Source: Planctomycetales bacterium
Lineage (GTDB): Bacteria > 4484-113 > JAFGCY01
Length of the DNA stretch: 64,000 nucleotides
Assembly: GCA_022646745.1 (NCBI GenBank)
Contig: CP060262.1
Coordinates: 1,751,149 to 1,815,148, forward strand
Direction of reading: 5' to 3'
Shown here one piece after another: positions 3,312 to 59,578 of the stretch; positions within the stretch are counted from its first letter, which is position 1, and the number at the start of each line of letters is the position of its first letter. Position numbers and translations under genes: made by a program. Under the pieces are notes generated by a model. The model made no database searches, was not told where the DNA came from, and worked only from the letters and a program-made list of their open reading frames with translations.

Positions 3312-3392
3312 TAATGTATCCGACCAGCCGCTGCACGCAGGCCACGGGGCAGGGCGGCGGTGATAAAATCGTGCCCTTAACGGAGGAAGGAA

Positions 3393-4061: not shown

Positions 4062-4079
4062 TCCCGGACTGGCTTCATT

Positions 4080-5291: not shown

Positions 5292-5349
5292 GCACATGGC
5301 GGCCAGGCCGCTGGTGCTAGAATCGGATGTTCAGGAGGACTAGGAAGGC

Positions 5350-17800: not shown

Positions 17801-18542
17801 GCAACACCTCCACTGCCGCTGGCCGTTGGCTCACGCTGGATGCCTGCTTGTCAAGGTCGCGCAGGTGCTCGCGCAGCAGCAATGCTTCACAGCGCTGCGC
17901 AAGAAAGGCATGCAGGCAGACATGCGTTGCCAGCAGCAGGCATGCTTCAATGGCTGCATAATTCAGGAAACTGTAGAAGTTGACCGGGGCATTGAGCACA
18001 ATGGCAACCAGCAGGGCTGCAAGCATGGGCAGCATCAGGATTGAAGGCAGCCAGCGCTGTTTTTCTCGGCCCTGCATGAAGGACAGCTGCTGGAATACCA
18101 GCCGCAGCTGCAGCGCCAGATCCCTGCCGGAATCAGTTTGCATTCCCTGCTCAATCTCCCTCAGCAATGCCAGGAACGGTGCATCCGGGCTGTCGGGTTG
18201 CCAGCCGGTCATGACCCTCGCCACCAGGTCAGAACGTCTCAGCATGCGCCTGGCGACGGAGATCCTGCGTGCCAGCAGCAGCAGGTTCAGCAGGCTGAGC
18301 AGTACGGCACTGAGCGCGAGCGACCAGCCAATGGTCTCAATGTATTCGTAATCAAAGGCATGGCGCACACCGGGATTGATAGCCTTGATTGGAGCGAGCG
18401 TGTACTGTAACCATAGGAGCGGCGGCAGCAGCGAAGGCACGAGGATGGCCAGCGCAGGCCACAGGGGATAGAGGTAAGTGCTGCGTGGTTCGCGACTGGC
18501 GTGCTCGCCAAACACCCGGTTCTCAAAGCTGGCCGTCTGCAT
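17793..18542 (-). CDS. 4-TM membrane protein, member 3 of the triplet (operon-proximal)
   Basis: Start chosen at MQTASFENRVFGE (RBS AGAGGGGA). A TATAAT box sits ~35 nt upstream on the minus strand. Loop motif RRSDLVARVMTGW. C-terminus LLREHLRDLD. The track ORF extends to 18689 through the repeat element. Confidence 0.55.
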   Translation of the reverse strand: MQTASFENRVFGEHASREPRSTYLYPLWPALAILVPSLLPPLLWLQYTLAPIKAINPGVRHAFDYEYIETIGWSLALSAVLLSLLNLLLLARRISVARRMLRRSDLVARVMTGWQPDSPDAPFLALLREIEQGMQTDSGRDLALQLRLVFQQLSFMQGREKQRWLPSILMLPMLAALLVAIVLNAPVNFYSFLNYAAIEACLLLATHVCLHAFLAQRCEALLLREHLRDLDKQASSVSQRPAAVEVLHG

Positions 18543-18616
18543 CGTCCCCTCTGTATCAAGCATGTCCATTCCCATGGGGATTATACGCCTGCGGGCATGG
18601 CTGCGCCAGCCTTGAC

Positions 18617-18767
18617 AGCAATGAGCAATGAAGAGTGAGCAATGAGTAGGAAGCAATGAGTAGGGATCAATGAAGAATGATCCTATCAATGTTTAGCAGG
18701 ACTCGATGCAGGTTCAGTCTCATTGCTCACTCTTCAGTGCTCATTGCTCCCCACTCATTGCTCCCCC
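18617..18767. repeat. Palindromic GAGCAATGAG-repeat element, copy a
   Basis: Arm CAATGAGCAATGAAGAGTGAGCAATGAG (18619-18647) is an almost perfect inverted repeat of CTCATTGCTCACTCTTCAGTGCTCATTGC (18719-18747). Additional (A)GCAATGAG direct repeats flank it. Located in the divergent promoter region between triplet gene 3 and the lipoprotein gene at 18828. Confidence 0.55.
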
Positions 18768-18827
18768 GCTTGACCCGCAAGCCGCATCCGCGGATAATTG
18801 ACTGGTAGTCCATCCAAGGGGAATAGC

Positions 18828-19679
18828 ATGGGAACGCAGAAGGGTATCGGTTTCGCAGGCGTGCTCGCCATCAGCCTGGCCTCACTGGTCTTCGGGGCCT
18901 GCGGCGGCGGAGGGGGCAACATCACCGGCTACGTGGTGCCGGACAACCCCTATTACTACGGTGGCAACAACGGCCCCTACTACTCAGGTAACAGCGACTA
19001 CTACTACCAGAACGGCTACTACTACGACCAGTATGGCTACTATGACCAGTTCGGCTACTACGACGGTTATGGCAACCAGCTGTACAACTCGAATGACCCG
19101 GCCTACGTGAACATCGTCAACCGCAACGGACGTGGCAACGACCCCTTCATGCAGAACTATGCCAACATCAACGACCGCACGGTCTCGCAGTTCGTCAACT
19201 CAACCTACTCCGAGATGCTGGCGGACTTCGGCGGCAGCCTGCAGGACCTGCTGGTGCGCGTGGATGGCAACTCAGTTGACATCCCGCCCGGGGAGTACAC
19301 GCTGGCAAGCCGCAATGCGGTGCTCAGTGAGGACGGCGGCCTGGACAGCGCGATCACGCTCAACTCCAGCTATGACGGAGTCAGCCTCGTGACCTACACG
19401 CTCGAGGAGTTCTCCGGCTACGAGCAGCTGGCCAGCTTCGCCATCAACGGCACGGGCAGCTTCGGCAGTGGCGACCGCAACGGGGTGTACTTCGGCATCC
19501 GCCAGTACGGCGACCGTGACACCCGCTGGTACGGCCCCTACCGCAACGGGATGGAGTGGAAGGTGCGCCCGCTGCGCTGGGATGAGCGCTACCAGTCGCG
19601 CCACTGCTTCGTGACCGTGGCTGTGTTCGGTGGAGACAGCGTGACCGTGAACCACATGCGCGCTGAGGTCGTTTACTGA
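18828..19679 (+). CDS. Lipoprotein with Tyr/Gly-rich low-complexity segment and a C-terminal W-Y-G-P-Y domain
   Basis: MGTQKGIGFAGVLAISLASLVFGAC lipobox. YYYGGNNGPYYSGNSDYYYQNGYYYDQYGYYDQFGYYDGYGN low-complexity segment. C-terminal TRWYGPYRNGMEW…HCFVTVAVFGG resembles the domain in the 21312/22287 lipoproteins and the giant protein. Confidence 0.65.
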   Translation: MGTQKGIGFAGVLAISLASLVFGACGGGGGNITGYVVPDNPYYYGGNNGPYYSGNSDYYYQNGYYYDQYGYYDQFGYYDGYGNQLYNSNDPAYVNIVNRNGRGNDPFMQNYANINDRTVSQFVNSTYSEMLADFGGSLQDLLVRVDGNSVDIPPGEYTLASRNAVLSEDGGLDSAITLNSSYDGVSLVTYTLEEFSGYEQLASFAINGTGSFGSGDRNGVYFGIRQYGDRDTRWYGPYRNGMEWKVRPLRWDERYQSRHCFVTVAVFGGDSVTVNHMRAEVVY

Positions 19680-19723
19680 ATCGAGGACTGACGAGGCACT
19701 GAATCTCGTGCTGAGGGAATTCC

Positions 19724-20221
19724 ATGGAATCTCCACATTCCGGCATGCCTGCATTGCGCAGCCCGGGCTATAATCGCCCAGTGGCGAAAAGCTCAGTCTG
19801 GTTATGCATTGTATGCTTTGCACTGCTGCTGGCAGGTGCCTGCGGCAGTTCATCCACATATTCCTACCGCCTGCCGGCCGGCGTTGACAACAACCTGCGC
19901 ATCGTGCGCGCCGGTGACCCGAACTCGGTGCTGGCCGACACGCAGGACAAGGGGCGGATCACGATGCGGGTCGGCGAGACGCTGACGGTCTCGGCGATCT
20001 ACCGCTTCCGTTCTGCGATCTTCACCGGCACTGACGAAAAGGATGAATTCGTCACCGCGGACAGCAGCTGGCACTGGCTGGAGGCCGTGAATGACACACT
20101 CAGCTTTGACAACGGGGTGGTCACGGCACTCAAGCCAGGGGTGGACACGCTCAAGGCGGAGTACCGCGACAACGACATCTTCGAGGACTTCGACGCCAAG
20201 CTGGAAATCACCGTTGAATAG
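19724..20221 (+). CDS. Small lipoprotein, paralog 1 of a tandem pair (Ig-like/BIG-type fold suspected)
   Basis: LLLAGACGSS lipobox. Aligns along its length with the next gene (…LRIVRAGDPNSVLADTQDKGRITMRVGETLTVSAIYRFRSAI…). Confidence 0.65.
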   Translation: MESPHSGMPALRSPGYNRPVAKSSVWLCIVCFALLLAGACGSSSTYSYRLPAGVDNNLRIVRAGDPNSVLADTQDKGRITMRVGETLTVSAIYRFRSAIFTGTDEKDEFVTADSSWHWLEAVNDTLSFDNGVVTALKPGVDTLKAEYRDNDIFEDFDAKLEITVE

Positions 20222-20278
20222 GGGCACGGTACCGGGATGGGCAGACGGATCAGGAAACCACAGTTACAGGAGCTGGAA

Positions 20279-20713
20279 ATGACAATCAACAGGATGGCGG
20301 GGATCTTCCTCGCAATGGTGGCGATGCTGGCGCTGGCCGCCTGCGGCGGTGGCGGCAGCGAGTACATGCTGCCCACCGGCCAGGACTACAGCCTGCGCCT
20401 CGTGAAGGGCGGCGACCCGAATGACGTGCTGGCCTCCACCGAGCGCAAGGGCCACATCACGATGAATGTCGGCGAGACGCTGAATGTCACGACGATTTAC
20501 CGCTTCCGCTCGGCGATCGGCGACAAGGAGAAGGATGAGTTCGTCACGGCGACCTCGGCCTATGTCTGGCTGGAGGACGTGAATGACAAGCTGAGCTACA
20601 GCAACGGCAAGATCACCGCGGTCAAGGCCGGGCTGGACACCCTGCTCGTTAACTACGTTGACAACAATGCCAATGAGACCGTGTCCTGCCGGCTGGAGAT
20701 CACGGTCAACTGA
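20279..20713 (+). CDS. Small lipoprotein, paralog 2 of the tandem pair
   Basis: RBS AGGAG before MTINRMAGIFLAMVAMLALAAC. ~45% identical to the previous gene. Confidence 0.65.
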   Translation: MTINRMAGIFLAMVAMLALAACGGGGSEYMLPTGQDYSLRLVKGGDPNDVLASTERKGHITMNVGETLNVTTIYRFRSAIGDKEKDEFVTATSAYVWLEDVNDKLSYSNGKITAVKAGLDTLLVNYVDNNANETVSCRLEITVN

Positions 20714-20737
20714 TCTTCATCGGATTGATCCACAGTG

Positions 20738-20768
20738 GGCCCGCTTCGGCGGGCCCTTTCTGCTTTCT
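20738..20768 (+). terminator. Rho-independent terminator (GGGCCCGC-TTCG-GCGGGCCC + TTTCTGCTTTCT)
   Basis: Perfect 8-bp GC stem, UUCG tetraloop and T-rich tail directly after the 20713 stop. Confidence 0.55.
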
Positions 20769-20774
20769 GCTCCC

Positions 20775-20890
20775 TGGCTCCGCCTAACAATCTCCTTCTT
20801 CATTTACTTCTCCCACTTCTTCAACTATTCAGACTATCTACACTATTGCCAGACTCTCGTCTGGCCTCCTGCCCACTGCTTACTGATTAT
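20775..20890. repeat. Mosaic short-repeat segment related to 15841-16210
   Basis: CACTTCTTCAACTATTCAGACTATC is the reverse complement of AGTCTGAATAGTGGAAGAAGTG at 15849. TACTTCT..CACTTC..CAGACTATC.A.ACTA matches 16157-16200 in direct orientation. Hairpin GCCAGAC-TCTC-GTCTGGC (compare CAGAC-GAAA-GTCTG at 16058). CCTGCCCACTGCTTACTG is the reverse complement of the CAGTAGGCAGCGGGCAGG family. Confidence 0.45.
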
Positions 20891-20988
20891 TTAACTTTCA
20901 CTTAATCAAACTCCTGTTAGGGTTCCGCCCCCCTGCGGTAACACATCTGGTTTGTGAGAACCCCACCAAATTCCAAAGGAGGCAGACC

Positions 20989-21177
20989 ATGCGTTCAATG
21001 ATCTATGCAGTGGCGGCAGTGCTGCTGGTACTTGCAATGGCAGTGGTTCACATGCTGTCCTCTGCGGATGCCGCGGGCGGCAGCCGGGAGGGGCAGCGCA
21101 TCGGCATGGCCGTTGCAGGTGACCACACTGACGATGCTTATTGCCAGGTTTCTGACTGGCTGAGTGAACTGGACTGA
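20989..21177 (+). CDS. Small protein (62 aa) with N-terminal hydrophobic segment
   Basis: Consensus RBS AAAGGAGGCAGACC before the ATG. MRSMIYAVAAVLLVLAMAVVHMLSSADAAGG is signal- or TM-like. Confidence 0.45.
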   Translation: MRSMIYAVAAVLLVLAMAVVHMLSSADAAGGSREGQRIGMAVAGDHTDDAYCQVSDWLSELD

Positions 21178-21311
21178 TGCAGGTGTTGACTGCCTGATCG
21201 GTGGGGCCGGGAAACCGGCCCCTTTCCGTTTCTGTTTAGCGATTGCGCTGGGCGGGTAACGATAACGGTTCATCTGTGGAACCCCAAAATCCAAATCAGA
21301 GGCCCACAGAA

Positions 21312-22115
21312 ATGTATGGAAAGTCTTATACCGGGTTTGCCGGTATCATCGCAGGAAGCATCATGATCCTCGCAGCCAGCTGCTCCGGTGGCAACGGCAT
21401 GGCAGAGGTCCCCTCCCCGCAGGACAGCGCGCCTGTCATCGGGGAAGCGCTCACCATGGAAGGTGCCCCCAGCCTGGAGAAGATCTCCAGCGGCTGGCAG
21501 CAGTGGGGCGATTTCGAGCTCGGCTGGCTGGACCTGCACCAGAGCGTGCATGACGGCAGCAATGAGCTGGACGAGACCCGCATCTTCGCCAAGAGCGAGG
21601 GAGTCTACAACTTCGAGGACGGCGGCAAGGACTACATCAACTTCCCGGCCGCCGGAGTCGGCATGCACTACGCCGTGTTCGGCCTGAAGGACATCCCGGT
21701 CGGCTCGATCATCCGCGGCATCCGTTTCACCACGGACTTCAACAGCTCCGAGAGTGATGACGCCGAGTACTACGTTGCCTACAGCAACTACGAGACCGGT
21801 GTGTTCCAGTGGTACGGCCCCTACGCCGAGGGCGACATCGAGCTCTACAACCTGTTCACGAACAACGTCAGTGTCGGCCAGAAGGCCTACTTCACCATCG
21901 CGGTCACGGGGAACAACTACTACTCCGACGTGACGGACGTGGAAGTCAGCATCGGCAAGCCGCTGAAGGTTGATCTGCCGCTGCTCTACGAGCGCCAGCC
22001 GATCCCCAACGACTGGGTTCTCAATGAGTATGGCAAGGTGGACTGGGACCTGCTGTGGAAGCGTCCCGAGTTCCAGGAGATCATGATCATCGTCCGTCCG
22101 ATCCTGATCTTCTGA
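21312..22115 (+). CDS. Lipoprotein, tandem duplicate 1 (W-Y-G-P-Y domain family)
   Basis: MYGKSYTGFAGIIAGSIMILAASCSGG lipobox. ~60% identical to the next gene, including the upstream leader (GGTTCATCTGTGGAACCCCAAAATCCAAATC…CCCACAGAAATG). Confidence 0.7.
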   Translation: MYGKSYTGFAGIIAGSIMILAASCSGGNGMAEVPSPQDSAPVIGEALTMEGAPSLEKISSGWQQWGDFELGWLDLHQSVHDGSNELDETRIFAKSEGVYNFEDGGKDYINFPAAGVGMHYAVFGLKDIPVGSIIRGIRFTTDFNSSESDDAEYYVAYSNYETGVFQWYGPYAEGDIELYNLFTNNVSVGQKAYFTIAVTGNNYYSDVTDVEVSIGKPLKVDLPLLYERQPIPNDWVLNEYGKVDWDLLWKRPEFQEIMIIVRPILIF

Positions 22116-22129
22116 GCAGCAACAAGCTG

Positions 22130-22166
22130 TCCTGAACAGCGGGCCTGGCATCTGCCGGGCCCGTTT
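22130..22166 (+). terminator. Rho-independent terminator (CGGGCCTGGCA-TCT-GCCGGGCCCG + TTTTTGTTTTTCT)
   Basis: GC stem plus a long T-tract after the 22115 stop. Confidence 0.55.
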
Positions 22167-22286
22167 TTGTTTTTCTGCACGATCCTGTGCGCTTTCACTG
22201 CATTTGCTGTTTAGGTTTGGGAGGGGCCGGGTAACAAGAATGGTTCATCTGTGGAACCCCCAAATCCAAATCTAGGACCCACAGAA

Positions 22287-23129
22287 ATGTACGGAAAGTT
22301 CACTAACAGCATTGCAGGAATCATCATCAGCGGCGCCGCCATCATGGCAGCCAGCTGCTCCGGCGGAGCCGGGATGGATACAGCCAACCCGGGTAACACC
22401 GAAGTCGACCAGGCCGCCATCATTGAGCAGGCCATCACCACCGACGAGATGCCTTCCCTTGAGAAGCTCTCCAGCGGCTGGGAGCAGTGGACCGGCAGCG
22501 ACATCCTGATCGACTGGTACACCGTCTGGCTCAACAAGCACCAGAGCGTCGGCTACGGCGTGAACGACCTTGATGAGACAAAGCTGATCACCAAGAGTGA
22601 GGGCGTCTACAACTTCGAGGACGACGGCAAGGATTACCTCAACTTCCCGGCCACCGGCGGCGGCCTGAACTACGCCGTGTTCGGCGTCAAGGACGTTCCG
22701 CAGGGCGCGATCATGAAGGGCATCCGCTTCACCACGGACTTCAACTCCAGTGAGAGCCCGAACGCTGAGTACTACGTCTGCTACAGCAACTACGAAAGCG
22801 GTGTCTACCAGTGGTACGGCCCCTTCGCAGAGGGCGAGTACGAGGTCTACAACTTCTACACAAACAACATCAACGAGTACCAGCGTGGCTACTTCACCAT
22901 CGCCATCACCGGCAACAACTACTACAGCGATGTGACTGACGTGGAAGTGATCATCGGCGACCCGATCGACTTCAAGATCCCGGACCTCGTCGAGCACCAG
23001 CCGATCCCGAACTGGTGGCTGATGGACGACCTGGGCTTCGTGGACTGGGGCAAGCTGTTCGAGCTGCCCGCCGTCCAGCAGCTGAAGATCGCCCCGCAGT
23101 TCCAGTTCAGGACTGAGCTGGCCCGCTAG
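22287..23129 (+). CDS. Lipoprotein, tandem duplicate 2 (W-Y-G-P-Y domain family)
   Basis: MYGKFTNSIAGIIISGAAIMAASCSGG lipobox. Conserved blocks SEGVYNFED(D/G)GKDY(I/L)NFPA, IRFTTDFNSSES, QWYGP(Y/F)AEG, TGNNYYSDVTDVEV. Confidence 0.7.
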   Translation: MYGKFTNSIAGIIISGAAIMAASCSGGAGMDTANPGNTEVDQAAIIEQAITTDEMPSLEKLSSGWEQWTGSDILIDWYTVWLNKHQSVGYGVNDLDETKLITKSEGVYNFEDDGKDYLNFPATGGGLNYAVFGVKDVPQGAIMKGIRFTTDFNSSESPNAEYYVCYSNYESGVYQWYGPFAEGEYEVYNFYTNNINEYQRGYFTIAITGNNYYSDVTDVEVIIGDPIDFKIPDLVEHQPIPNWWLMDDLGFVDWGKLFELPAVQQLKIAPQFQFRTELAR

Positions 23130-23764: not shown

Positions 23765-23858
23765 GCGCCACGCACTTCGCGTTCTGTTCCGCAATAAAAA
23801 ATAAAACTGTGCCGTGCGCGGCGGTGGGTGCCGTGCCCGGCTGCATCCGGAGCAATGG

Positions 23859-25703
23859 ATGATCGATCGCTACACGCGGCCGCCAATGGGCCGCCTGTTC
23901 ACGGCGAAGCATCGCTTTGACACCTGGCTGAAGGTTGAGCTGGCTGTCTGCGAGGCCTGGGCGGAGCGCGGGGAAATCCCGCAGGATGCCTGGAAGCGCA
24001 TCAGGAAGAATGCCAACTACAAGCTCAAGCGCATCAACGAGATTGAGGCGGCCGTGCACCATGACGTGATCGCCTTCAACACGGCGGTGGCGGACTACAT
24101 CGGCGAGGACAGCGCCTACTTCCACAAGGGGATGACCTCCAATGACGTGGTGGACACCGCGCAGTGCCTGATCCTCAAGGAGGCCGGGCAGCTGATCGAG
24201 GAGGGCCTGATCCGCCTGCGCAAGGCGCTCGGCGCCCGTGCGCTGGAGTACCGCCACACCCCGGTGATGGGCCGCACACACGGCGTGCATGCCGAGCCGA
24301 CCACCTTCGGGCTGAAGCTCCTGGTCTGGTATGACGAGCTCAACCGCCACGAGGAGCGGCTCGCGCTGGCGATTGACGGCCTGGCCGTCGGCAAGCTGTC
24401 CGGCGCCGTTGGCAACTTCGCGCACATCCCGCCGGACCTCGAGGAGCAGATCCTGCGAAAGCTCGGCCTGCAGAGTGCGCCGGTCTCCAACCAGGTGGTG
24501 CAGCGCGACCGGCATGCGCACTTCGTGATGGTGCTGGCCGGGCTGGCCTCCACGATGGAGAAGATCGCCGTCAACCTGCGCAGCTACCAGCGCACGGAGA
24601 TCGGCGAGGTGCAGGAACCCTTCGCCAAGGGCCAGAAGGGCTCCTCCGCGATGCCGCACAAGAAGAACCCGATCCTGCTCGAGCGCATCACCGGGCTGTC
24701 CCGTGTGATCCGCGGCTATGCCGTGACCGCGCTTGAGAACGTCGCGCTGTGGGACGAGCGTGACATTTCACACTCCGGCGCCGAGCGCGTGATCCTGCCG
24801 GACGCCTGCATCCTCGTTGACTACATGATGGACAAGCTGTCAACGGTGATCGGCGGGCTGGTCGTGCGCCCGGAGCAGATGAACCGCAACATCTACCTGA
24901 CGAAGGGCCTGATCTTCAGCCAGCGTGTGCTGCTGGCCCTGACCGAGGCCGGCGTCAGCCGCGAGGATGCCTACAGCATGGTGCAGCGCAATGCGATGCG
25001 CTGCTGGGAGGACCGCACCCCGCTGCTGGATGCTCTGCTCAATGACCGGGACGTGCGCAGCCACCTGGACACGGCGCAGATCTCCAGCCTGTTCACCATC
25101 GACCCGTTCCTGGAGCATGTCGACCGGCTGTTCGAGCGCGTCGGCCTCAGTGACGGCAAGAAGCACAGCTCAGACGACCCGAAGCCGGTGCAGGCCCCGC
25201 GCCGCGGCCGGGGACGCGGCCGGCGCAAGGATGACCGCATCATGCGCAGCGAACAGGGCAACATTGACAGCATTGCAGTGGACACCGGCGCGATCCAGAA
25301 CATCAGTGAGCGCGCCTCCGACTACTACGAGTCCGCCAGCGTGGTACTGAGCCGTACGAAGTCGGATGCACCGAAGGGTGATGACACGCTTGGCGAGGCG
25401 GAGCACCAGAAGAAGAAGGTGGCCAGTGAAGGTACCGGCAAGCCTGCCAGCGCCTCCCGCAGCCGCTCGCGCAGCAAGCCGCGCACTGACAAGGATAAGG
25501 ATAAAGTTGCCACTGAAGGCAAGGATAATGAGAAGCCTTCCGGGGTAGGAAGCAGCAAGCCCGCCCCTCCCGCCGACGCTTTGGCGTCCGCCGATGAGGA
25601 GAAGGCGGCGAAGCCACGCCGGCGCAGGCGTCGCAGCCCGTCGCGCAAGCCCGCAGAGGGTGGCACTGGTAATGGATCTGATACTAAGGAAAAGGGAGAA
25701 TAG
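23859..25703 (+). CDS. purB: Adenylosuccinate lyase with ~190-aa basic/Ser-rich low-complexity C-terminal extension
   Basis: N-terminus MIDRYTRPPMGRLF (compare B. subtilis-type PurB). Fumarate-lyase signature GSSAMPHKKNP. The catalytic core ends ~aa 440. The ORF continues uninterrupted through a K/R/S/D-rich tail (RRGRGRGRRKDD…RSRSRSKPRTDKDKDK…KPRRRRRRSPSRK) to 25703, 2 nt before purC. Confidence 0.85.
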   Translation: MIDRYTRPPMGRLFTAKHRFDTWLKVELAVCEAWAERGEIPQDAWKRIRKNANYKLKRINEIEAAVHHDVIAFNTAVADYIGEDSAYFHKGMTSNDVVDTAQCLILKEAGQLIEEGLIRLRKALGARALEYRHTPVMGRTHGVHAEPTTFGLKLLVWYDELNRHEERLALAIDGLAVGKLSGAVGNFAHIPPDLEEQILRKLGLQSAPVSNQVVQRDRHAHFVMVLAGLASTMEKIAVNLRSYQRTEIGEVQEPFAKGQKGSSAMPHKKNPILLERITGLSRVIRGYAVTALENVALWDERDISHSGAERVILPDACILVDYMMDKLSTVIGGLVVRPEQMNRNIYLTKGLIFSQRVLLALTEAGVSREDAYSMVQRNAMRCWEDRTPLLDALLNDRDVRSHLDTAQISSLFTIDPFLEHVDRLFERVGLSDGKKHSSDDPKPVQAPRRGRGRGRRKDDRIMRSEQGNIDSIAVDTGAIQNISERASDYYESASVVLSRTKSDAPKGDDTLGEAEHQKKKVASEGTGKPASASRSRSRSKPRTDKDKDKVATEGKDNEKPSGVGSSKPAPPADALASADEEKAAKPRRRRRRSPSRKPAEGGTGNGSDTKEKGE

Positions 25704-26452: not shown

Positions 26453-26911
26453 CTAGTCGGCCCAGACGATGTAGTCGGAATTGACGGCGGGACGGCCGCA
26501 GGCCTTCAGCGATGTGTTCACATACCCGCGGTGGAATGCCGAGTGCAGCACCATGTGCATCAGGATGTCATGCATGCTGCGCTCGCAGTTCTCCCCTTCA
26601 TGGCTTCGGTATCGCAGGCGCAGGCGCAGGTAGGTGTCGTCCATGTTTGAAAGGATGATCTGCAGGCGCAGCTGCGTTGCCAGGTCCATGTCGCGAATCT
26701 GGCGGATCAGCTTGTCCGGCCACATGTCCACGTGGTCCGAGTTGCCCTTGTCAATCCGCTCCAGCCAGCATGCCCGCCCGGCGATGATGTGCGCAGCCTG
26801 CCGCCGCGCCTCTTTCGCGTGTTCGCAGTCACCGGCACGTTCCACGGCGCCGATCACCTTTTCCGTCATTTCGAATTCGTAGGCGAACAGGCGCCTCAGT
26901 TGCGTGACCAT
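26453..26911 (-). CDS. DinB/YfiT-like (DinB_2 superfamily) metal-dependent protein
   Basis: Internal start MVTQLRRLFAYEFEMTEKV (ATG 26909-26911). C-terminal HSAFHRGY motif typical of the DinB four-helix-bundle family. The track ORF up to 27277 is a spurious 5' extension antisense to the next gene. Confidence 0.65.
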   Translation of the reverse strand: MVTQLRRLFAYEFEMTEKVIGAVERAGDCEHAKEARRQAAHIIAGRACWLERIDKGNSDHVDMWPDKLIRQIRDMDLATQLRLQIILSNMDDTYLRLRLRYRSHEGENCERSMHDILMHMVLHSAFHRGYVNTSLKACGRPAVNSDYIVWAD

Positions 26912-27043
26912 AGGAATAATGTAACAGAGCCGGGCATTGCTGGACAGCCCGCACAAAGGCCCGCAAGGTTTGTTTCCACCGCATTGACGGGGTACAATCA
27001 CAGCGGGAATCACCGGCTGAAACAGAATTCCCGGGAGTATGTT

Positions 27044-29026
27044 ATGAAGGGACGTAAGATCGCTTTTCTTCCCTGCGCCATCATCATCCTGCTGCTGCTT
27101 GGGGGCTGCGGTGGGAATGCCGGATCCGGCAATGGATCCACCGCACTGAATGATGCCGCCGGGAAAGACATGAAGCTCGAACAGCAGCTGCAGGCTGAGC
27201 TGCTTGGACTGCTGGCCGATCGGGGGATTGATGCGCAGCGCAGCGCCAGCCGCCCACCGCTCGGTGAAAGCAACCATGTGTTCTCCAGCCGGCTCACGGC
27301 GAATGAACCGGACGGGGCAGGTGATGACGGATCACTGCGCCTGCTGTTCGTGCCCCGGCTGGCCGGTGACTACGATGGCAACGGTGAGGTCGGACTGTCG
27401 GACGTCACACCGCTGGCCCAGAATTTCGGCAAGAGCGTGCTGTATGGCAAACCGGCGCTGCCCGGTGGCGCGGACAACCCGCCGGTTGGCGACCCCTACA
27501 GCGATGGGCATGCCAACTGGCTGCTGTCCCGCTGCGACGGGGATGGCAACGGGGTGATCAGCAGTGCCGACCTGACCGCGATCGCGCTGCACTTCGGCGA
27601 GCGCGCCGATGGCTGGCGCGTGGAATGGCGCAATGATGACTTCTCAGGATTCGCCCCGCTGGCGGACCCCAACGGGCTGCTCGATGGCTACAGCCTCGGC
27701 TGGCAGGACGGCCGGGTTTCCAACCTGGCCCAGGAGTTCATCCTGCCCTGGCCGCTGAGCGGACATGCCGAGGTGCGGCTGCGGGCCTGGGATGCCCGGA
27801 CCGGCAGCGGGGGCGAAGCCAGTGCCGTTCAGGTCTATGACGTGGCCTCCACTGACTGCGTCGCCGCCTTGCAGCTCATCGAGAATGAGCAGCCGGCCCC
27901 CTTCCTTGCACGCTTCACCGCGACCGGCAGCACGGTCGATGCGGACAGCTACGAGCTGGACTTCGGCGACGGCAGCAGCCAGCTGATTGCCAGCATCACT
28001 GAATTCCCGGTCGAGCATCTGTATGAAACCGGTGGCACTTCGCTTGCCACCCTGACCGTCAACTGCGGCCAGGACAGCGCACAGGCCGGCATCACAGCGG
28101 TTGCCACCCCGGTGCCGACAGCCAAGCAGGCCCACATCCTGGCCTTCAGCAATACGGGCTTCGCCCCGCAGACAGTGCATTTCTCCTACCAGTGGACTGA
28201 TGAGCCGGCGGTCAGCTACACGCTGGACTTCGGCGATGGCAGCGAGCCCATCAAGGTCGAGGAGTGGGCCACCCAGCTGCCGACGGAGCATGTCTACACC
28301 ACGGCCGGGGAATACACCGCCAGCCTGACGCTGGAGGCCCGTTACCTCGGGACTTCCGTTGCCAGCGTGCCGGTCACGATCCTGCAGGGTACGCCTGAGC
28401 TGAACCTGAGCATCGAGGCGGAGTACATTGACGCCGGCAATGACAGCATCATCTTCGACTTCAGTGGATCCTCCCCCGTCACCGCCGTGCTGTCACTTGG
28501 AGATGTATTTGCCCCGATAGAAATCGACCTCGGACTGGTCCAGCAGTACGCAATCACCAGCGAGCAGATCATGCAGCTGGACAAGGATGAGAAGGCTACG
28601 ATCAGCGTCGAGATTGCCGGTCAGACCTACAGCGATTCCGTGATGATCCCGCGAAAGAACATTGTCCTGACTCCCGGCGAGCTGGATGTGCTGCTGGTTT
28701 CCATGGACAATACTGGCAACATCCTCGAAACCTTCCCCGGAGTCGGATTCAGCCTGTTGCTCAGCCAGCATGCCAGCACCGGCTCACCGCTGGTCAACAA
28801 GTACACCACCGGCAGCGGCGGGTATTTCATGGTCAGAACCCAGCAGGACAAGCTCAGCAAACTGATCAATCCGGATGGGTCTGACCCGCTCGTACTGCTG
28901 CCGGACCCCGCTGACCGGGCCCTGCTGGAAGCGGACTACATCTGGCCTGAAGGGGACATCAGCCTTTCTCCGTTTGAACTTGTGTATGGAGGCACGCATT
29001 ACATCAGGCTGCGTCCGCGCAGCTGA
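27044..29026 (+). CDS. Surface lipoprotein with dockerin-like repeat pair and PKD-like domains, paralog 1 of 3
   Basis: MKGRKIAFLPCAIIILLLLGGCGG lipobox. Two dockerin type-I-like Ca-binding repeats (GDYDGNGEVGLSDVTPLAQNFG; CDGDGNGVISSADLTAIALHFG). PKD-type motifs YELDFGDGSS, YTLDFGDGSE. Confidence 0.75.
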   Translation: MKGRKIAFLPCAIIILLLLGGCGGNAGSGNGSTALNDAAGKDMKLEQQLQAELLGLLADRGIDAQRSASRPPLGESNHVFSSRLTANEPDGAGDDGSLRLLFVPRLAGDYDGNGEVGLSDVTPLAQNFGKSVLYGKPALPGGADNPPVGDPYSDGHANWLLSRCDGDGNGVISSADLTAIALHFGERADGWRVEWRNDDFSGFAPLADPNGLLDGYSLGWQDGRVSNLAQEFILPWPLSGHAEVRLRAWDARTGSGGEASAVQVYDVASTDCVAALQLIENEQPAPFLARFTATGSTVDADSYELDFGDGSSQLIASITEFPVEHLYETGGTSLATLTVNCGQDSAQAGITAVATPVPTAKQAHILAFSNTGFAPQTVHFSYQWTDEPAVSYTLDFGDGSEPIKVEEWATQLPTEHVYTTAGEYTASLTLEARYLGTSVASVPVTILQGTPELNLSIEAEYIDAGNDSIIFDFSGSSPVTAVLSLGDVFAPIEIDLGLVQQYAITSEQIMQLDKDEKATISVEIAGQTYSDSVMIPRKNIVLTPGELDVLLVSMDNTGNILETFPGVGFSLLLSQHASTGSPLVNKYTTGSGGYFMVRTQQDKLSKLINPDGSDPLVLLPDPADRALLEADYIWPEGDISLSPFELVYGGTHYIRLRPRS

Positions 29027-29134
29027 ACAGGCAGCGCAGCGGTCGGTCTCGCTTGCAAGCAGCTTGTGAGACACCGTATACTGCTAATGGCTGAATCATG
29101 AGCGGCGGGCCGTAACCGCTCCCAGGAGTAATGC

Positions 29135-31102
29135 ATGCGTCGACTGAGCGGATCATCCCGGTGGATACTGCTTGCCTGCCTGCTTTTGCTGACGGTGGGT
29201 TGTGCAGGCGGCGGAGGACAGAACACGGAGCAGCAGGCTGCCCTGCAGCAGCCTCCCGCAGCTGACCCGCAGCTGCTGGCTGAGCTGGAGGGCCTGCTGA
29301 TGGACGAGCTGGCCCGGCTGGGCAAGGACCCGCAGCGCACGACTTCAGCGCCACCCGCCGGGAATGGCAACGCCGTGTTCAACCTGCTGGTGGATGCCCG
29401 TCCGCCGGACGGCCTCGGCGGGCAGGGTGACTCGGAATTCCGCTTCTATCCCCGTATGGTCGGTGACTACGATGGCAATGGCGAGGTCGGCATCAGTGAC
29501 ATCACCCCGCTTGGGCAGTACTTCGGCGAGAGTGTGGTGTATGACGACCCGTTGGAGCACGGCGGGATCGCCTACTGGCCGAGCGGTGAACCGGACGGCG
29601 GCGGGCGCACCAACTGGCTGAAGGCCCGCGTCGACGGCGATGGCAACGGCGAGATCAACACGGCGGACATCACCCCGATCGCGATCCACTTCGGCGAGCA
29701 CTGCGATGGCTGGCGCATCGAGCGGCGCTTCGCTGCGGAGACCGGCTTCGAGATGCTGCCGCATGCTGACAATCCTGAGAGTGAGCTAAGCGTCGGCTGG
29801 AAGGAACTCGCCGAGAACAGCATCGGCTACCGCCTGCCCGGCGACTGGCCGGCCAGCGGTTACCTCGAGATGCGGGTGCAGGGCTGGGAATCGGCCAGTT
29901 CCAGTGGCGGTCCGATGAGCGACAGCAGTATCTATGAATTCACGGAAGGCAGTTGCGAGGCATTCCTGCAGGCCAGCCCAACGGTGGCTGACTTCCCCTT
30001 TGACGCGAGCTTCACGGCCGCGGGATCATCCGTGCTGGCCGACTCATACGTGATTGACTTTGGCGACGGCACGGATGCCACTCTGGGCAGCCTGGCCGAA
30101 TTCCCGCTGAGCCACCCGTACAACGAAGCGGGGATCTATGACGTGGTGTTCACGGTCAGCTGTGGCACGGATGTCGCCACGGACAGCTTCCAGATCATCG
30201 CCACCCCGCTGCCCTGTGAGCTGGAGGCGGTGCTTGGTGTCAACCCGATGGATGGCTTCGCCCCGCTCAAGGTGCTGTTCAGCCCGCTCGGCACCAGTCC
30301 CGGTGCGGCCGGCTATGAGCTGGACTTCGGCGATGGCAGCGAGGTCGCCAGCGGGGCCACGCCCTCTGAACTGGCAATCACCCATGAGTATACTGAGACC
30401 GGCAGCTACACCGCCACCCTGCGGGTGGTCTGCGAGAATGGTGGCAACGTCGAGACGACGGTCACGATAACCGTCGGCAACCCTGATGACGAGTGTGGCG
30501 TCAACCTGTCAGTCGATGACGACAGCCCGATCATCGGCACACCGACGGCATTCTTCTTCGGCGGCACCAGCGGTTCTGCTGCCCTGCTGGACCCCGGCGA
30601 CGGCAGTGACGTGCAGTTCATCAACCTGCAGGGGCCGGAGCCGGTGTTCTACACCTACCCGGAGATCGGCACCTACACCGCGGTGCTGTCCATCCTCTGC
30701 AATGACAGCATGCACAGCGACTCGGTGCTGGTGTTCGTACTGCCTGAACCGATCAACACTTTCGATGCGGCGGGCAAGGTCTACCAGTACGAGTCCAACC
30801 CGCCGATCGGCGGACCGGAGCCGGACAAGTTCGCGATGGTTGGCGCGGAGATGGAGATCTACAACTCGACTGACGACGTAGTGATGGGCACGACCACCAC
30901 GGATGCGTCAGGTGCATACTTCTTCGATGGTGACAGCCTGGGCCTTGATGTCAACAAGATCTACTTCGTGCGGCCGACTGATGCGGAACGGGCCAAGCAT
31001 GTCCCGCTGGACTGGTTCCCGGGCCAGGCCACGATCGCCGCACCGCCGGCTGACATGGTTTACACATGCACTGACATCAACCTGCTGGCAACGGAGGTCT
31101 GA
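29135..31102 (+). CDS. Surface lipoprotein with dockerin-like repeats, PKD-like domains and C-terminal Cna-B/CarboxypepD_reg-like domain, paralog 2 of 3
   Basis: Lipobox LLLTVGCAGG. GDYDGNGEVGISDITPLGQYFG and VDGDGNGEINTADITPIAIHFG. YVIDFGDGTD, YELDFGDGSE. C-terminal TTTDASGAYFFDGDS. Confidence 0.75.
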   Translation: MRRLSGSSRWILLACLLLLTVGCAGGGGQNTEQQAALQQPPAADPQLLAELEGLLMDELARLGKDPQRTTSAPPAGNGNAVFNLLVDARPPDGLGGQGDSEFRFYPRMVGDYDGNGEVGISDITPLGQYFGESVVYDDPLEHGGIAYWPSGEPDGGGRTNWLKARVDGDGNGEINTADITPIAIHFGEHCDGWRIERRFAAETGFEMLPHADNPESELSVGWKELAENSIGYRLPGDWPASGYLEMRVQGWESASSSGGPMSDSSIYEFTEGSCEAFLQASPTVADFPFDASFTAAGSSVLADSYVIDFGDGTDATLGSLAEFPLSHPYNEAGIYDVVFTVSCGTDVATDSFQIIATPLPCELEAVLGVNPMDGFAPLKVLFSPLGTSPGAAGYELDFGDGSEVASGATPSELAITHEYTETGSYTATLRVVCENGGNVETTVTITVGNPDDECGVNLSVDDDSPIIGTPTAFFFGGTSGSAALLDPGDGSDVQFINLQGPEPVFYTYPEIGTYTAVLSILCNDSMHSDSVLVFVLPEPINTFDAAGKVYQYESNPPIGGPEPDKFAMVGAEMEIYNSTDDVVMGTTTTDASGAYFFDGDSLGLDVNKIYFVRPTDAERAKHVPLDWFPGQATIAAPPADMVYTCTDINLLATEV

Positions 31103-31386
31103 CGGCAGGTGCAAAATGGACTCCCTGAAAACGGCATGAATTGAACCTTTTGCCACTATGCCTGTTCTGGCATAATCCGCATAGATGCAGGTCCCTGCAT
31201 GCCAGTCAGCTACTGCCGGCTGGAAAATGTGGATATGGACACGGTTACCATGTAACCAGGCTGTGTGCAAACCGGTGTGCAGGGCCTGCATTCCATTGAA
31301 GGTGCGTGCTGCTCTGCGGTTGATGGCAACGCAGTTTAGTGCCCCTGCGCTTGAAGCGCTCCCTCTTTGCGGTATACAGATATTGT

Positions 31387-32838
31387 ATGAACACCGCCAA
31401 GCGCAGATCCTCCGGCTGGATCACCCTGTTCTCCCTCCTGCTGGCAATCGCATTGCTGCCGTCCTGCTCGGCTGGCCTTGATGGCCGTCCAGTGCAGTCC
31501 GGGGCGGATCTCCAACGGGAGCTGGAAGGCCGCCTGCTTTCGGAACTGGCCCGCCTGGGCAAGGACCCCGATCGTGCGGTGGCCAGTGCACCGCAGGGTA
31601 GTGGCAACGCCGTATTCAACCTCACGGCGGAGCCCAATGACCCGGACGGGCCGGGCGGCCAGCCGCCACTGTCCGTTGAGCTGAGCTGGACGGCGCGCAT
31701 CGTGGGCGACTACGACCAGAACGGCGAGGTAGGGATTGCCGACATCACGCCGCTCGGGCAGTTCTTCAAGCAGTCCGTTGCCTATGACGACCCGCTGGAC
31801 CACGACGGCATCAGCTTCTGGCCGGCCGGCGACCCACTCGCGGATGGCAAGGCCAACTGGCGCAGCGCCGCCGTGGACGGCGATGCCAACGGTGAGATCA
31901 ACGCGGCCGACATCACCCCGATCGCGATCCACTTCGGTGAGCGGATTGATGGCTTCAATATCTACCTGAAGCAGACCGGCGAGACGGAGTTCAGCATCCT
32001 GCCGAACCTGCTCGACCCATTCGTCTCGGTCAGTGTTTCGCTGAAGGCCGCCGGAAACGGCCCGGCGAATTACACAGCGAGCATCCCCTGGCCATCCTCC
32101 GGGATGGCGGAGATCGCCGTGGCAGGGTACGACAGCCAGAGCAGCTCGGCCGCGCAGCTTTCCAACATAGTCAGCGTCAGCGGTGATCCCGGATCTCCGC
32201 CGGGCAGCTGTGTGGCGGAGCTGACGGTTGATGTCCCCTCTGGGCAGGCTCCACTTGGCGTGATGTTCGGGCTGGGCGGTTCCAGCACGGGTGATCCAGG
32301 CGACTACCGCTACGTGCTCGACAGCGGTGAGGGCGGGGCACGCTTCAGCTTTGAGGACAGTGCTTCCTTCCCGCTGGCCTATACATTCCTCAGCGGCGGG
32401 ACCTTCAATGCCGTGCTGGCCGTGGTCTGCCTGGCGGATGGCCAGGTGGCCTTCTCCGACCCGGTGAGTGTCACGGTCACGGATCCGGCTGGGCCCGGCC
32501 TCAACCTGAACGGCTTCGTCTGGCAGTACGAGAGCAACCCGGAACTGGGCGGGCAGGATGAACCTCCCAAGAACCCGCTGGAGGGTATCGAGGTCGAGGT
32601 TTACATCCTTGGCGAATCCACGCCGCTGGCCGTGACCACCACCGCGGCGAACGGCGAATATGTCTTCCCCAACCTGCAGATTGACGAGTCGGTGGAACTG
32701 CTGAACGTGAAGGTCAGCGATGCGCAGAAGGCCGAGCTGCTGCCGCTGACCTGGCTGCCCGGGGAGCGGATCCTGCTGCTGGACAGCCATGAGCAGTTCA
32801 CGGCAGCCGACATGAACCTGCTGGCCACCGCCGTCTAG
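31387..32838 (+). CDS. Surface lipoprotein with dockerin-like repeats and Cna-B-like C-terminus, paralog 3 of 3
   Basis: MNTAKRRSSGWITLFSLLLAIALLPSCSAG. GDYDQNGEVGIADITPLGQFF and VDGDANGEINAADITPIAIHFG. TTTAANGEYVFPNLQ. Confidence 0.75.
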   Translation: MNTAKRRSSGWITLFSLLLAIALLPSCSAGLDGRPVQSGADLQRELEGRLLSELARLGKDPDRAVASAPQGSGNAVFNLTAEPNDPDGPGGQPPLSVELSWTARIVGDYDQNGEVGIADITPLGQFFKQSVAYDDPLDHDGISFWPAGDPLADGKANWRSAAVDGDANGEINAADITPIAIHFGERIDGFNIYLKQTGETEFSILPNLLDPFVSVSVSLKAAGNGPANYTASIPWPSSGMAEIAVAGYDSQSSSAAQLSNIVSVSGDPGSPPGSCVAELTVDVPSGQAPLGVMFGLGGSSTGDPGDYRYVLDSGEGGARFSFEDSASFPLAYTFLSGGTFNAVLAVVCLADGQVAFSDPVSVTVTDPAGPGLNLNGFVWQYESNPELGGQDEPPKNPLEGIEVEVYILGESTPLAVTTTAANGEYVFPNLQIDESVELLNVKVSDAQKAELLPLTWLPGERILLLDSHEQFTAADMNLLATAV

Positions 32839-33119
32839 CCCAGGGACTGCGAATTCCTCATATGTGAACTCGCGCTTAAGCGCTGCAGTCGCGTGCGCGC
32901 GGGCCGATGAATAGCCTGCAGGGTGGATGGGCCCTGTTACCGGCAAACCTACATTGATATAGCCATTCCCCCCCCATTGCGGGAGGAGCCTCCGGGCTTC
33001 TCCCGTGCCTTTTTCCACAGCCAGCCAGTCCCGGACCGGGAATATCAACGAAAGCAAATCCCGGTTGATGGATTGTTGGCCTCCATCGGCCGATATACCT
33101 TATTAATGAACAGAGAATG

Positions 33120-33148
33120 TTTGACAAATTTTCTCTGGATAGGGTAGT
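33120..33148 (+). promoter_or_regulatory. Sigma70-like promoter TTGACA-N18-TAGTAT upstream of the OMP-like gene
   Basis: TGTTTGACAAATTTTCTCTGGATAGGGTAGTAT, ~55 nt upstream of ATG 33207. Confidence 0.4.
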
Positions 33149-33206
33149 ATCTTCGATCAGCAGGTGTCGTAAGATGCCAGCTAATGGAATATTCCGGGAG
33201 GAAGCG

Positions 33207-33740
33207 ATGAAAAAGCTGACGGCAATCCTTTGCTTTGTGGTTACCGTAATGTGGGCCAGCAGTGCATTCGCTCAGTACTCAGCTCTTGATGACCAGAACG
33301 AATTCGGTCCGGCAATCGGTATCGGTGGCCTGCTGCTCAGTGGTGACGACTCAGCTGGTAACAGCCAGAATGACTTCGTCCCGACCCTGAACCTCAGTGG
33401 CCTGTCCGACGTGCTTGCCTACCAGCTGTATTTCGGCCTGGACAGCGATGTTGACGTCTGGGGTCTCGACCTCGACTACGTCGTGGCGGACAACTTCGAC
33501 GAGTGCGCCCCCTGCGCCGGCGAGGGTGGTTCCTGGTGGTTCGGCGTTGGTGCCAGCTACATGGACTACAGCGACCTGTTCAACGACAGCGGTGCCGGTG
33601 TGAGTGGTGACGACTTCGGTCCGAACCTGGCCTTCGGTTACATCTGGGACGAGTGGAGCTTCAACCTCTACGCCCGCTACTTCATGGATGCTGAGGCCTT
33701 CAGCGTGATGGGCAGCATCAACTACTCCTTCGACAGCTAA
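33207..33740 (+). CDS. Small outer-membrane beta-barrel-like protein (177 aa) with signal peptide
   Basis: RBS GGGAGGAAGCG. MKKLTAILCFVVTVMWASSAFA signal. Alternating hydrophobic beta-strand pattern, aromatic-rich, ends …SINYSFDS. Confidence 0.55.
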   Translation: MKKLTAILCFVVTVMWASSAFAQYSALDDQNEFGPAIGIGGLLLSGDDSAGNSQNDFVPTLNLSGLSDVLAYQLYFGLDSDVDVWGLDLDYVVADNFDECAPCAGEGGSWWFGVGASYMDYSDLFNDSGAGVSGDDFGPNLAFGYIWDEWSFNLYARYFMDAEAFSVMGSINYSFDS

Positions 33741-59494: not shown

Positions 59495-59578
59495 GAACTG
59501 TCCGCCATATCGGAATAAGCAAGACTGTATCAAAATCTCCTATGCACATGCAATATGCAGCCAAATCAGTCGCCGGGT

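Follow-up and report, generated by a model that had tools for sequence, protein, structure and literature searches.

Three Tandem Putative Lipoproteins with a Dockerin-Like Segment Nested in an Fn3-Like Domain in a Bacterium of the Candidate Phylum UBP7

Introduction

The stretch of DNA considered here, a window of 64,000 nt (64 kb) from contig CP060262.1, contains three tandem paralogous genes on its forward strand, namely g1 (27044-29026; 660 residues), g2 (29135-31102; 655 residues) and g3 (31387-32838; 483 residues, with an alternative GTG start at 31339). All gene coordinates are given in window numbering. The products are putative lipoproteins, and each carries an N-terminal module of ~250 residues in which a dockerin, built from two Ca2+-binding repeats, is predicted to be nested inside a fibronectin type III (Fn3)-like domain. 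This Fn3-nested dockerin module is an undescribed architecture. The genes themselves have already been deposited under a generic name: the identical NCBI records UNM09818.1 (g1), UNM09819.1 (g2) and UNM09820.1 (g3) are all called “PKD domain-containing protein” and bear the organism label Planctomycetales bacterium. The host lineage is the candidate phylum UBP7, which is separate from the Planctomycetota despite the NCBI labels. The interpretation that is favoured here, with modest confidence, is that g1, g2 and g3 are ancient paralogs encoding non-enzymatic, lipid-anchored envelope proteins whose Fn3/dockerin module would dock to a common partner, with PKD domains and C-terminal sandwiches turned outward.

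A first-pass annotation of the sequence had reported three tandem paralogous genes at this location, and three forward-strand open reading frames (ORFs) lie exactly there. In an end-to-end alignment (MAFFT) the other two paralogs are 37% and 32% identical to g1, and the similarity is strongest over the first ~290 residues. AGGAG-like sites occur ~8 nt upstream of the ATG in g1 and g2 (AGGAG 8 nt upstream in g2). The motif strings quoted in that annotation are present, with two departures in g1, where the G(S/N)GNAVFNL block is degenerate (GESNHVFSS) and the second loop reads NGVI, not NGEI. What had been missed is the nesting of the dockerin in an Fn3-like domain, the inter-repeat linker that is ~21 residues longer than usual, and the membership of the genes in a very large lineage-specific family.

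The three proteins share their N-terminal half and differ behind it. The layout of g1 comprises a lipobox, an N-terminal helix, the Fn3-like domain with its nested dockerin, two PKD units and a distinct C-terminal region (residues 447-660). In g2 the lipobox, helix and Fn3-like domain with nested dockerin are followed by two PKD units, one degenerate unit and a C-terminal domain resembling prealbumin and CarboxypepD_reg. The product of g3 has a signal, the helix, the same Fn3-like domain with nested dockerin, one divergent PKD-like unit and a C-terminal domain as in g2.

The Calcium-Binding Repeats as a Predicted Dockerin

The Ca-loop expression D-x-[DN]-x-[DNS]-G-x-[ILV]-x-x-x-D was scanned over all six frames of the window. 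It matches six times, always inside g1-g3, with two matches per gene that are always 56 residues apart; the pair of dockerin-like repeats proposed for each gene is thus found in all three and nowhere else in the window. Each pair lies in an insert of 87 residues, located at 27353-27613 in g1 (loop-helix 1, a long linker and helix-loop-helix 2), at 29450-29710 in g2 (placed by a Pfam Dockerin_1 match, the insert alignment and hhalign) and at 31693-31953 in g3, the copy that was modelled alone. The loops have Asp at positions 1, 3 and 12 and Asn at position 5, and a helix with D-[IL]-T-P-[IL] follows each of them; this helix is seen after each loop in both AlphaFold models, that of the g3 module and that of the g3 insert. 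The ligand positions are invariant in the alignment of the module and conserved in 148 family members selected by the regular expression. Within these 148 members the helix start D-[IL]-T-P-[IL] (positions 12-16) is strongly conserved in both repeats, and positions 10, 11, 18 and 22 are variable. In cellulosomal dockerins, positions 10, 11, 18 and 22 are the specificity positions.

The identification of the repeats as a dockerin comes from homologs and from structure models. Dockerin_1 is the recurrent best Pfam match for the loop region in distant relatives, and it passes its gathering cut-off in six homologs that the module profile recovers with E values of 1e-27 to 1e-48. The scores of these homologs are 27-54 bits (P0031 44.3, P0036 36.3, P0038 27.1, P0039 29.5, P0044 38.8 and P0051 54.5), and the gathering cut-offs used throughout are 22.9 bits for Dockerin_1, 24.1 for Cohesin, 27 for PKD_4, 23.5 for PKD, 29.7 for SdrD_B and 32.3 for CarboxypepD_reg. 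An hhalign comparison of the insert profile with the Pfam-passing dockerin of P0051 gives a probability of 95.9% (E 6e-9), and the sole large gap in that alignment is one of 21 residues inside the inter-repeat linker. The AlphaFold2 model of the 87-residue g3 insert has a mean per-residue confidence (pLDDT) of 92.3. In a Foldseek search of the PDB with this model, ranks 1-19 are all dockerins or X-module-dockerin (XDoc) chains. The best match is 2y3n_B, with a probability of 1.00, a TM score of 0.82 on the target and a root-mean-square deviation of 1.7 Å; the E values of these matches are modest (6e-3 at best).

Some results weigh against the identification. Within the window proteins, Dockerin_1 stays below its gathering score in g2 (13.7 vs 22.9 bits; E 0.073; profile positions 2-50 of 57), and g1 and g3 have no Dockerin_1 match at all in a direct Pfam scan. 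The Pfam check that had been suggested for the repeats therefore succeeds in homologs and falls short in g1-g3 themselves. When searched against PDB sequences, the module and insert profiles give similarly low scores to calmodulin and to dockerin, as expected from their shared loop chemistry; the insert segment matches calmodulin with E about 3e-4 (summed score) and the best dockerin with 7e-4. A weak match to occludin in the same searches was judged spurious.

The similar scores of calmodulin and dockerin would suit an alternative in which the likeness to dockerin is superficial and the repeats belong to the generic Ca2+ motifs of EF-hand or thrombospondin type 3-like kind. EF-hand Pfam families do appear as weaker matches in relatives, and a helix precedes the second loop in the insert model. 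Nevertheless, this alternative is very improbable and has been largely refuted. Dockerin_1 scores above every EF-hand family wherever both match, and only Dockerin_1 reaches threshold for the region. Pfam scans find no EF-hand family at E<=1 in g1-g3, and no TSP_3 match at E<=1 in g1-g3 or nine relatives. Position 12 of the loop is Asp, not the Glu of EF-hands, which holds without exception in the module alignment and in all 148 selected members, and in the g3 module model the element that leads into loop 1 is a beta-strand, not a helix. Foldseek probabilities for the insert model reach 1.00 with dockerins and are at most 0.02 with EF-hand proteins (E about 9). Between the type I-like dockerin called at first pass and the EF-hand or thrombospondin type 3 motifs that had been set against it, the Pfam-passing homologs, the hhalign alignment and the exclusive presence of dockerins in the top 19 structural matches decide for the dockerin. 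This evidence is indirect, and it supports a predicted dockerin in g1-g3.

Cellulosomal type I and type II dockerins (PF00404; 2y3n_B, 1ohz_B, 2ccl_B) share several properties with the inserts of g1-g3. Both have a duplicated segment of ~22 residues in which a 12-residue Ca2+ loop is followed by a helix, both follow the loop pattern D-x-D/N-x-N/D-G-x-V/I-x-x-x-D with Asp at position 12, and the predicted fold superposes on 2y3n_B as given above. Unlike cellulosomal dockerins, g1-g3 lie below the Pfam threshold and have a conserved Pro at helix position 15. Their loop-to-loop distance is 56 residues in the window clade, compared with 69 in a sister clade and with the normal family spacing of 33-38 that is seen in distant family members. 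Compared with family members of normal dockerin spacing, the linker has ~21 additional residues; this extra segment has the consensus V-x-Y-D-x(4)-H-x-G-x(3)-W-P-x-G-D-P, which is conserved within the clade. Whereas cellulosomal dockerins are free-standing and C-terminal, the dockerin of g1-g3 is N-terminal and nested in another domain. Its carriers are putative lipoproteins that lack catalytic domains and come from an uncultured, non-cellulolytic lineage with candidate partners only.

The Fn3-Like Host Domain

The N-terminal module covers residues 39-289 of g1 (27158-27910; from the module alignment and the family profile search), residues 41-291 of g2 (29255-30007; from the module alignment) and residues 38-288 of g3 (31498-32250; from the AlphaFold2 model and Foldseek). 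Its elements are arranged in the order helix, Fn3 strands A-B, dockerin and Fn3 strands C-G. The AlphaFold2 model of the g3 module has a pLDDT of 84.6 and a predicted TM score (pTM) of 0.75. In this model a helix (model residues 2-19) is followed by strands 38-47 (AVFNLTAEPN) and 59-67 (SVELSWTAR), by the four helices of the dockerin segment, and then by five strands at 152-159 (GFNIYLKQ), 166-168, 190-197, 203-212 and 225-228. The module can be described as a predicted Fn3-like A-B / C-C'-E-F-G sandwich that is interrupted between strands B and C by the dockerin. The top Foldseek matches in the PDB are FnIII domains (1va9, 2doc, 1uen and cytokine-receptor modules) with probabilities of 0.96-1.00; their E values are only 4e-3 to 3e-2 and their TM scores on the target at most 0.57. 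These alignments stretch over ~223 columns onto targets of ~120 residues (one has 122), that is, they run across a large gap.

Sequence comparison speaks less clearly for Fn3. After the insert had been spliced out in silico, Pfam fn3 remained unmatched at E<=1 in all 17 of the 17 members examined. The best PDB sequence match of the spliced host domain is an FN3 consensus with E 0.021, which is not significant, and this alignment runs straight over the splice junction (LsW..RGYrV). Since significant sequence support is lacking, the Fn3 assignment rests on the AlphaFold model and on Foldseek matches with E ~4e-3.

That strand, dockerin and strand belong together is indicated by three metagenomic relatives, P0031, P0044 and P0051, in which the whole strand-dockerin-strand unit occurs in tandem; the segment therefore behaves as one unit. 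Apart from two Fn3/dockerin units in succession, the three proteins contain little. The second dockerin of each is far closer to the canonical form than that of the window (Pfam 36-54 bits), and the proteins bridge the window-type module to ordinary dockerins.

A structural parallel is found in XDoc of Clostridium thermocellum CipA/ScaA (2b59_B, 5m0y_B, 4u3s_B), where an Ig-like sandwich and a dockerin likewise form a rigid unit and whose chains are among the best structural matches of the g3 insert model. XDoc attaches its complex to cell-surface anchoring proteins, which parallels the predicted membrane-proximal position of the module in g1-g3. The two differ in topology and in context. XDoc has its sandwich in front of the dockerin, in tandem, and the pair stands at the C-terminus of a secreted scaffoldin of a Gram-positive organism, whereas in g1-g3 the dockerin interrupts the Fn3-like sandwich between strands B and C at the N-terminus of putative lipoproteins.

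Lipoprotein Signals and a Large Family in UBP7

The strict PROSITE-type lipobox pattern [LVI][ASTVI][GAS]C is fitted by LLGGC in g1 (Cys22) and by LTVGC in g2 (Cys23). In g3 the corresponding LLPSC (Cys27) is off the pattern at position -2, though its orthologs read LLSAC or LLAAC, so that the lipobox originally assigned to every gene stands for g1 and g2 and is imperfect in g3. Among family representatives with complete N-termini, 74 of 92 (about 80%) have a strict lipobox. The mature proteins begin with a conserved amphipathic helix. From these signals, g1-g3 are probably N-terminally lipid-anchored envelope proteins with a surface location.

The module defines a family of considerable size. 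A full HMMER search with the module profile, in which counts refer to cluster representatives, recovers 2,311 representatives at E<=1e-3 and 377 at E<=1e-30. The proteins are 250-1,700 residues long, and their downstream domains are highly variable. PKD domains are found by Pfam in 40 of 58 full-length representatives, and many members end in what looks like a repeat beta-propeller, as seen by inspection of P0016. The module lacks a model in both Pfam and NCBIfam, and current records of these proteins say only “PKD domain-containing” or “hypothetical”. A search found no paper on an Fn3-nested dockerin or on the module family in the library covered; papers retrieved with the name UBP7 are dominated by the yeast deubiquitinase so called.

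A scan of species-representative genomes confirmed 160 stretches in 12 metagenome-assembled genomes (MAGs), with at least 15 loci per well-assembled UBP7 genome. The MAGs with relatives include HKST-UBA01 and HKST-UBA03 of UBP7 as well as AC1.30, Ww346 and others. The HKST MAGs derive from saline activated sludge and have been assigned to the candidate phylum UBP7 (PMC8495973). HKST-UBA01 is the closest relative, with a g3 module that is 96% identical to that of the window.

Gene order is retained in two related MAGs (loci L001 and L002) as purE-purB-purC-[g1]-[g2]-[g3]-orf-orf-gmk-rpoZ-coaBC, and a DinB-family gene lies on one or the other side of the g1 ortholog, depending on the MAG (L001 vs L002). 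Orthologs at the same position are 42-59% identical for g1, 57-59% for g2 and 65-74% for g3, compared with only 35-44% between paralogs. Each paralog is closest to the gene at the same position in the two MAGs, and the triplication therefore predates these genomes. The retention of all three copies argues for distinct, selected roles.

The fixed place of the module directly behind the lipobox raises the question of whether helix and Fn3/dockerin together are a sorting tag by which a lineage-specific machinery would recognise lipoproteins for export to, or positioning on, the surface. Such a role would explain why, in nearly all of the 150 best representatives, the module begins between residues 40 and 70, and it agrees with the frequency of the lipobox and with the variability of everything downstream. 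It is nonetheless improbable. Known lipoprotein export signals are short peptides, to which ~250 folded residues bear no resemblance; the unit is also found internally or in tandem (P0031, P0044, P0051) and behind another domain (P0026, P0027, P0129); and no candidate machinery has been identified.

Cohesins and Candidate Sockets

Two proteins outside the window join the module to a cohesin. In P0052 the module is accompanied by a Cohesin domain that passes its Pfam cut-off (26.2 vs 24.1 bits). A search with this cohesin found only 7 close relatives, and a hidden Markov model (HMM) built from them matched one ORF, in locus L070, among 81 loci; that ORF combines the module and a P0052-type cohesin domain in one protein. 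In locus L082, a Cohesin gene (its Pfam match is marked weak) comes directly after, and overlaps, an unannotated gene of 297 residues.

A second group of candidates lies within the family. An extra domain of ~120 residues is placed between lipobox and module in P0026, P0027, P0045, P0129, P0182 and P0187. Its profile finds ~20 ORFs in the UBP7 loci examined, often as tandem pairs; among them are six ORFs in four HKST-UBA01 loci. Only Cohesin recurs among the Pfam matches of the extra domain, in 6 of 18 members and below threshold (E 9e-4 at best), and of its three best PDB sequence matches two are cohesins (4uyp_A and 5g5d_A, E about 0.3). By eye the domain is cohesin-like. It has not been called a cohesin here, given Pfam E values of 9e-4 or higher, a best PDB E value of 0.27 and an hhalign probability of 1% to the Pfam-passing type. 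As a candidate cohesin-like socket it is a lead and not a finding. Genes with this N-terminal domain and an Fn3/dockerin module are often adjacent tandem pairs, such as 2449-4479 and 4510-6222 in locus L072. The tandem pairs of loci L058, L065, L069 and L072 (HKST-UBA01, HKST-UBA03, Ww346) mirror the tandem paralogy of the window.

For docking as the function of g1-g3, the weak tie of the extra domain to cohesins is one difficulty. Another is that no cohesin occurs in the window, as judged by Pfam and by the HMM built from P0052 relatives. The earlier remark that no cohesin partner is in sight is accurate for the window; for the lineage it no longer applies, as candidate cohesin-like domains occur within the same family in related genomes. 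In addition, a lipid-anchored protein has no obvious need of a dockerin, and the surface exposure, lipidation, Ca2+ binding and partner of g1-g3 are predictions.

The absence of a cohesin from the window and the weak tie of the extra domain to cohesins also speak for the main competing explanation, in which the dockerin is a partnerless orphan that binds Ca2+ and stiffens the Fn3 pedestal, and the proteins act through their PKD domains and C-terminal sandwiches. The model of the g3 module treats dockerin and Fn3 as one confident unit (pTM 0.75), as would be expected of a subdomain packed on its host, and D-[IL]-T-P-[IL] (positions 12-16), the best-conserved part of the helix, may simply belong to the core. 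Cohesin-less dockerins are described as common outside cellulosomal organisms (Peer et al., 2009, as cited in PMC6461901). However, P0052 and the L070 ORF show that cohesin and module co-occur in the same proteins, and a full two-repeat dockerin kept in more than 2,000 representatives would be a costly loop stabiliser. A purely structural dockerin is therefore considered possible but doubtful, and docking to a partner remains the preferred function of the module.

PKD Units and C-Terminal Domains

PKD modules had been assigned to all three proteins, and two of them qualify by Pfam. In g1, PKD units 1 and 2 (residues 271-352 and 361-446; 27854-28381) pass with 56.7 bits for PKD_4 and 55.1 bits for PKD in two stretches. 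Units 1 and 2 of g2 (residues 273-354 and 362-447) pass with 69.6 bits for PKD_4 and 51.0 bits for PKD, also in two stretches, and are followed by a degenerate third unit (residues 477-524; the three units together at 29951-30706). A local PKD profile built from the four clear units of g1 and g2 matches this third unit with E 0.0011. The g3 protein has no Pfam PKD match in a direct scan, yet its divergent unit (YVLDSGEGG; residues 274-362; 32206-32472) and those of its orthologs match the local profile with E about 7e-9. Plain PKD surface proteins (PF00801/PF18911) are thus comparable to g1 and g2, each of which has two passing units. They differ in that PKD is only the middle part of g1-g3, whose distinctive conserved part is the N-terminal module.

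The last ~125 residues are homologous between g2 (residues 531-655; 30725-31099) and g3 (residues 360-483; 32464-32835) and absent from g1, as seen by local profile comparison. This agrees with the earlier statement that only paralogs 2 and 3 share a C-terminal Cna-B-like domain, while the assignment to CarboxypepD_reg or SdrD_B itself is below threshold (E 0.003-0.02). The g3 domain scores 18.4 bits for SdrD_B (E 0.0026) and 17.2 bits for CarboxypepD_reg (E 0.0065) and has a NOMO1-like match (E 0.049), all sub-threshold; the same is true of the g2 domain with SdrD_B at 15.7 and SpaA at 12.3 bits. Against PDB sequences, the profile of the domain matches NOMO2 (E 1.6e-4, summed score), Lap (0.028) and SdrD (0.054). 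A putative prealbumin/Cna-B-like beta-sandwich is plausible. The motif G-x-E-V-x-(I/V)-Y ... T-T-T-x-x-x-G-x-Y-x-F of g2 and g3 aligns to the prealbumin-like, CarboxypepD_reg and SdrD-B (Cna-B-type) families and to NOMO, Lap and SdrD repeats. Unlike these families, the g2 and g3 domains are sub-threshold and have a C-terminal extension that ends in D-[IM]-N-L-L-A. This motif, a few residues before the stop codon, is invariant in g2, g3 and all orthologs and is absent from g1. Its sites (31066-31099 in g2 and 32802-32835 in g3) may form a last beta-strand or act as a recognition signal at the C-terminus.

The possibility that the proteins are enzymes, which the first-pass annotation had left beside adhesins, has found no support. 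Dockerin and PKD domains together would fit cellulosome-like subunits, that is, hydrolases that a scaffoldin would recruit through their dockerins to degrade polymers: PKD often accompanies secreted glycosidases and peptidases, and the proposed “planctosome” is a precedent (PMC6461901). Yet neither of the hallmarks of a cellulosome-type system is found, since Pfam detects no catalytic family in g1-g3 or in 58 family representatives, an NCBIfam scan of g1-g3 yields nothing useful and no catalytic family, and the window has no cohesin. All residues are taken up by binding-type sandwich domains, and the dockerin is N-terminal and membrane-proximal rather than a C-terminal appendage of an enzyme. 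Enzyme subunits are accordingly disfavoured and are the least probable of the explanations considered; non-enzymatic envelope proteins are retained.

Neighbouring Genes

No terminator-like site was found on the forward strand between g1, g2 and g3, and a terminator-like hairpin (13 pairs and a T run) follows g3 at 32978-33007, in a consensus scan for promoters and terminators whose number of sites is not above the shuffled background. No operon is therefore claimed. In the same scan, a sigma-70-like site (10 of 12 matches) overlaps the start of the next gene (33117-33740, forward strand). This gene, directly after g3 and syntenic in relatives, encodes a protein of 207 residues with a signal peptide (…SSAFA/QY). 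It has Gly/Asp-rich loops and alternating aromatic residues, ends in …SINYSFDS and looks like a small outer-membrane beta-barrel; Pfam gives no match at E<=0.01.

Upstream of g1, the longest DinB-family ORF (26453-27277, reverse strand; 274 residues) would overlap the g1 start. The gene has only 152 residues in relatives, so its true start is probably internal, without overlap with g1. The purB (adenylosuccinate lyase) ORF at 23814-25703 on the forward strand has a C-terminal tail of ~170 residues rich in Lys, Arg, Ser and Asp; the purB ortholog in L001 is also long (624 residues), and such a length is unusual for PurB.

Just upstream of the trio, a run of further lipobox proteins without Pfam match is encoded on the forward strand at 18798-23129. 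It starts with a Tyr/Gly/Asn-rich protein of 293 residues (18798-19679) and includes a tandem pair of 165 and 158 residues (19724-20221 and 20237-20713) and another of 290 and 292 residues (21243-22115 and 22251-23129). L001 and L002 have comparably sized gene sets at this position. The region of 18.8-33 kb can be regarded as a lipoprotein-rich island interleaved with purE, purB and purC. On the reverse strand, 16252-18689 holds three tandem paralogous membrane proteins of ~270-300 residues with multiple predicted transmembrane segments and a shared C-terminal “LLREHLRxLD” motif. A second, unrelated large PKD protein of 1,883 residues is encoded at 53882-59533 on the reverse strand. It has five PKD domains and PQQ_2/BamB-like beta-propeller repeats, with PKD and PQQ-propeller domains only and no dockerin loops.

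Proposed Arrangement and Implications

In the arrangement proposed for g1-g3, Fn3 and dockerin would form one rigid, Ca2+-stabilised pedestal beside the membrane. Standard Fn3 topology puts the BC loop at the pole of the N-terminus, and the dockerin should therefore face the lipid-anchored, membrane-proximal side; the chain would exit toward the PKD domains at the opposite Fn3 pole. The dockerin may serve as a protein-protein docking site that ties the lipoproteins to a shared envelope partner, most plausibly cohesin-like domains on other members of the same family. PKD domains and C-terminal sandwiches would project outward as binding or spacer modules.

A bolder extension is that UBP7 has a membrane-tethered surface network. 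Dozens of lipoproteins would use the nested dockerin as a universal plug, and divergent cohesin-like domains of the same family (N-terminal, rarely C-terminal) would be the sockets, in a non-cellulosomal, non-enzymatic cohesin-dockerin system that would order the envelope of the whole phylum, with the conserved g1-g2-g3 trio among its core components. At present this extension is rather unlikely. Among known systems, the module can be compared with the hypothetical “planctosome” of freshwater Planctomycetes, in which free-standing dockerins are placed on peptidases and an adaptor (Andrei et al., 2019; PMC6461901). There too dockerins, and sometimes cohesins, occur with no sign of cellulose degradation, and surface complexes have been proposed. 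In contrast to the planctosome, the carriers in g1-g3 have no catalytic domains, and the dockerin is Fn3-nested, linked to a lipobox and present at no fewer than the 15 loci per UBP7 genome counted above.

Non-cellulosomal dockerins are widespread, and for almost none of them is a partner or role known. A dockerin specialist would be somewhat surprised by the architecture and by the size of the family. Members that have a cohesin or cohesin-like domain in the same family are candidate plug-and-socket pairs, which makes binding by a non-cellulosomal dockerin directly testable. If such pairing is true, cohesin-dockerin assembly would reach beyond enzyme complexes to the way in which a Gram-negative-type lineage organises its envelope in general, and protein engineering might gain from the module a new dockerin scaffold that is structurally constrained. 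The scale of the family, with at least 2,300 representatives and at least 15 loci per genome, suggests that the module is central to the building of the UBP7 cell surface.

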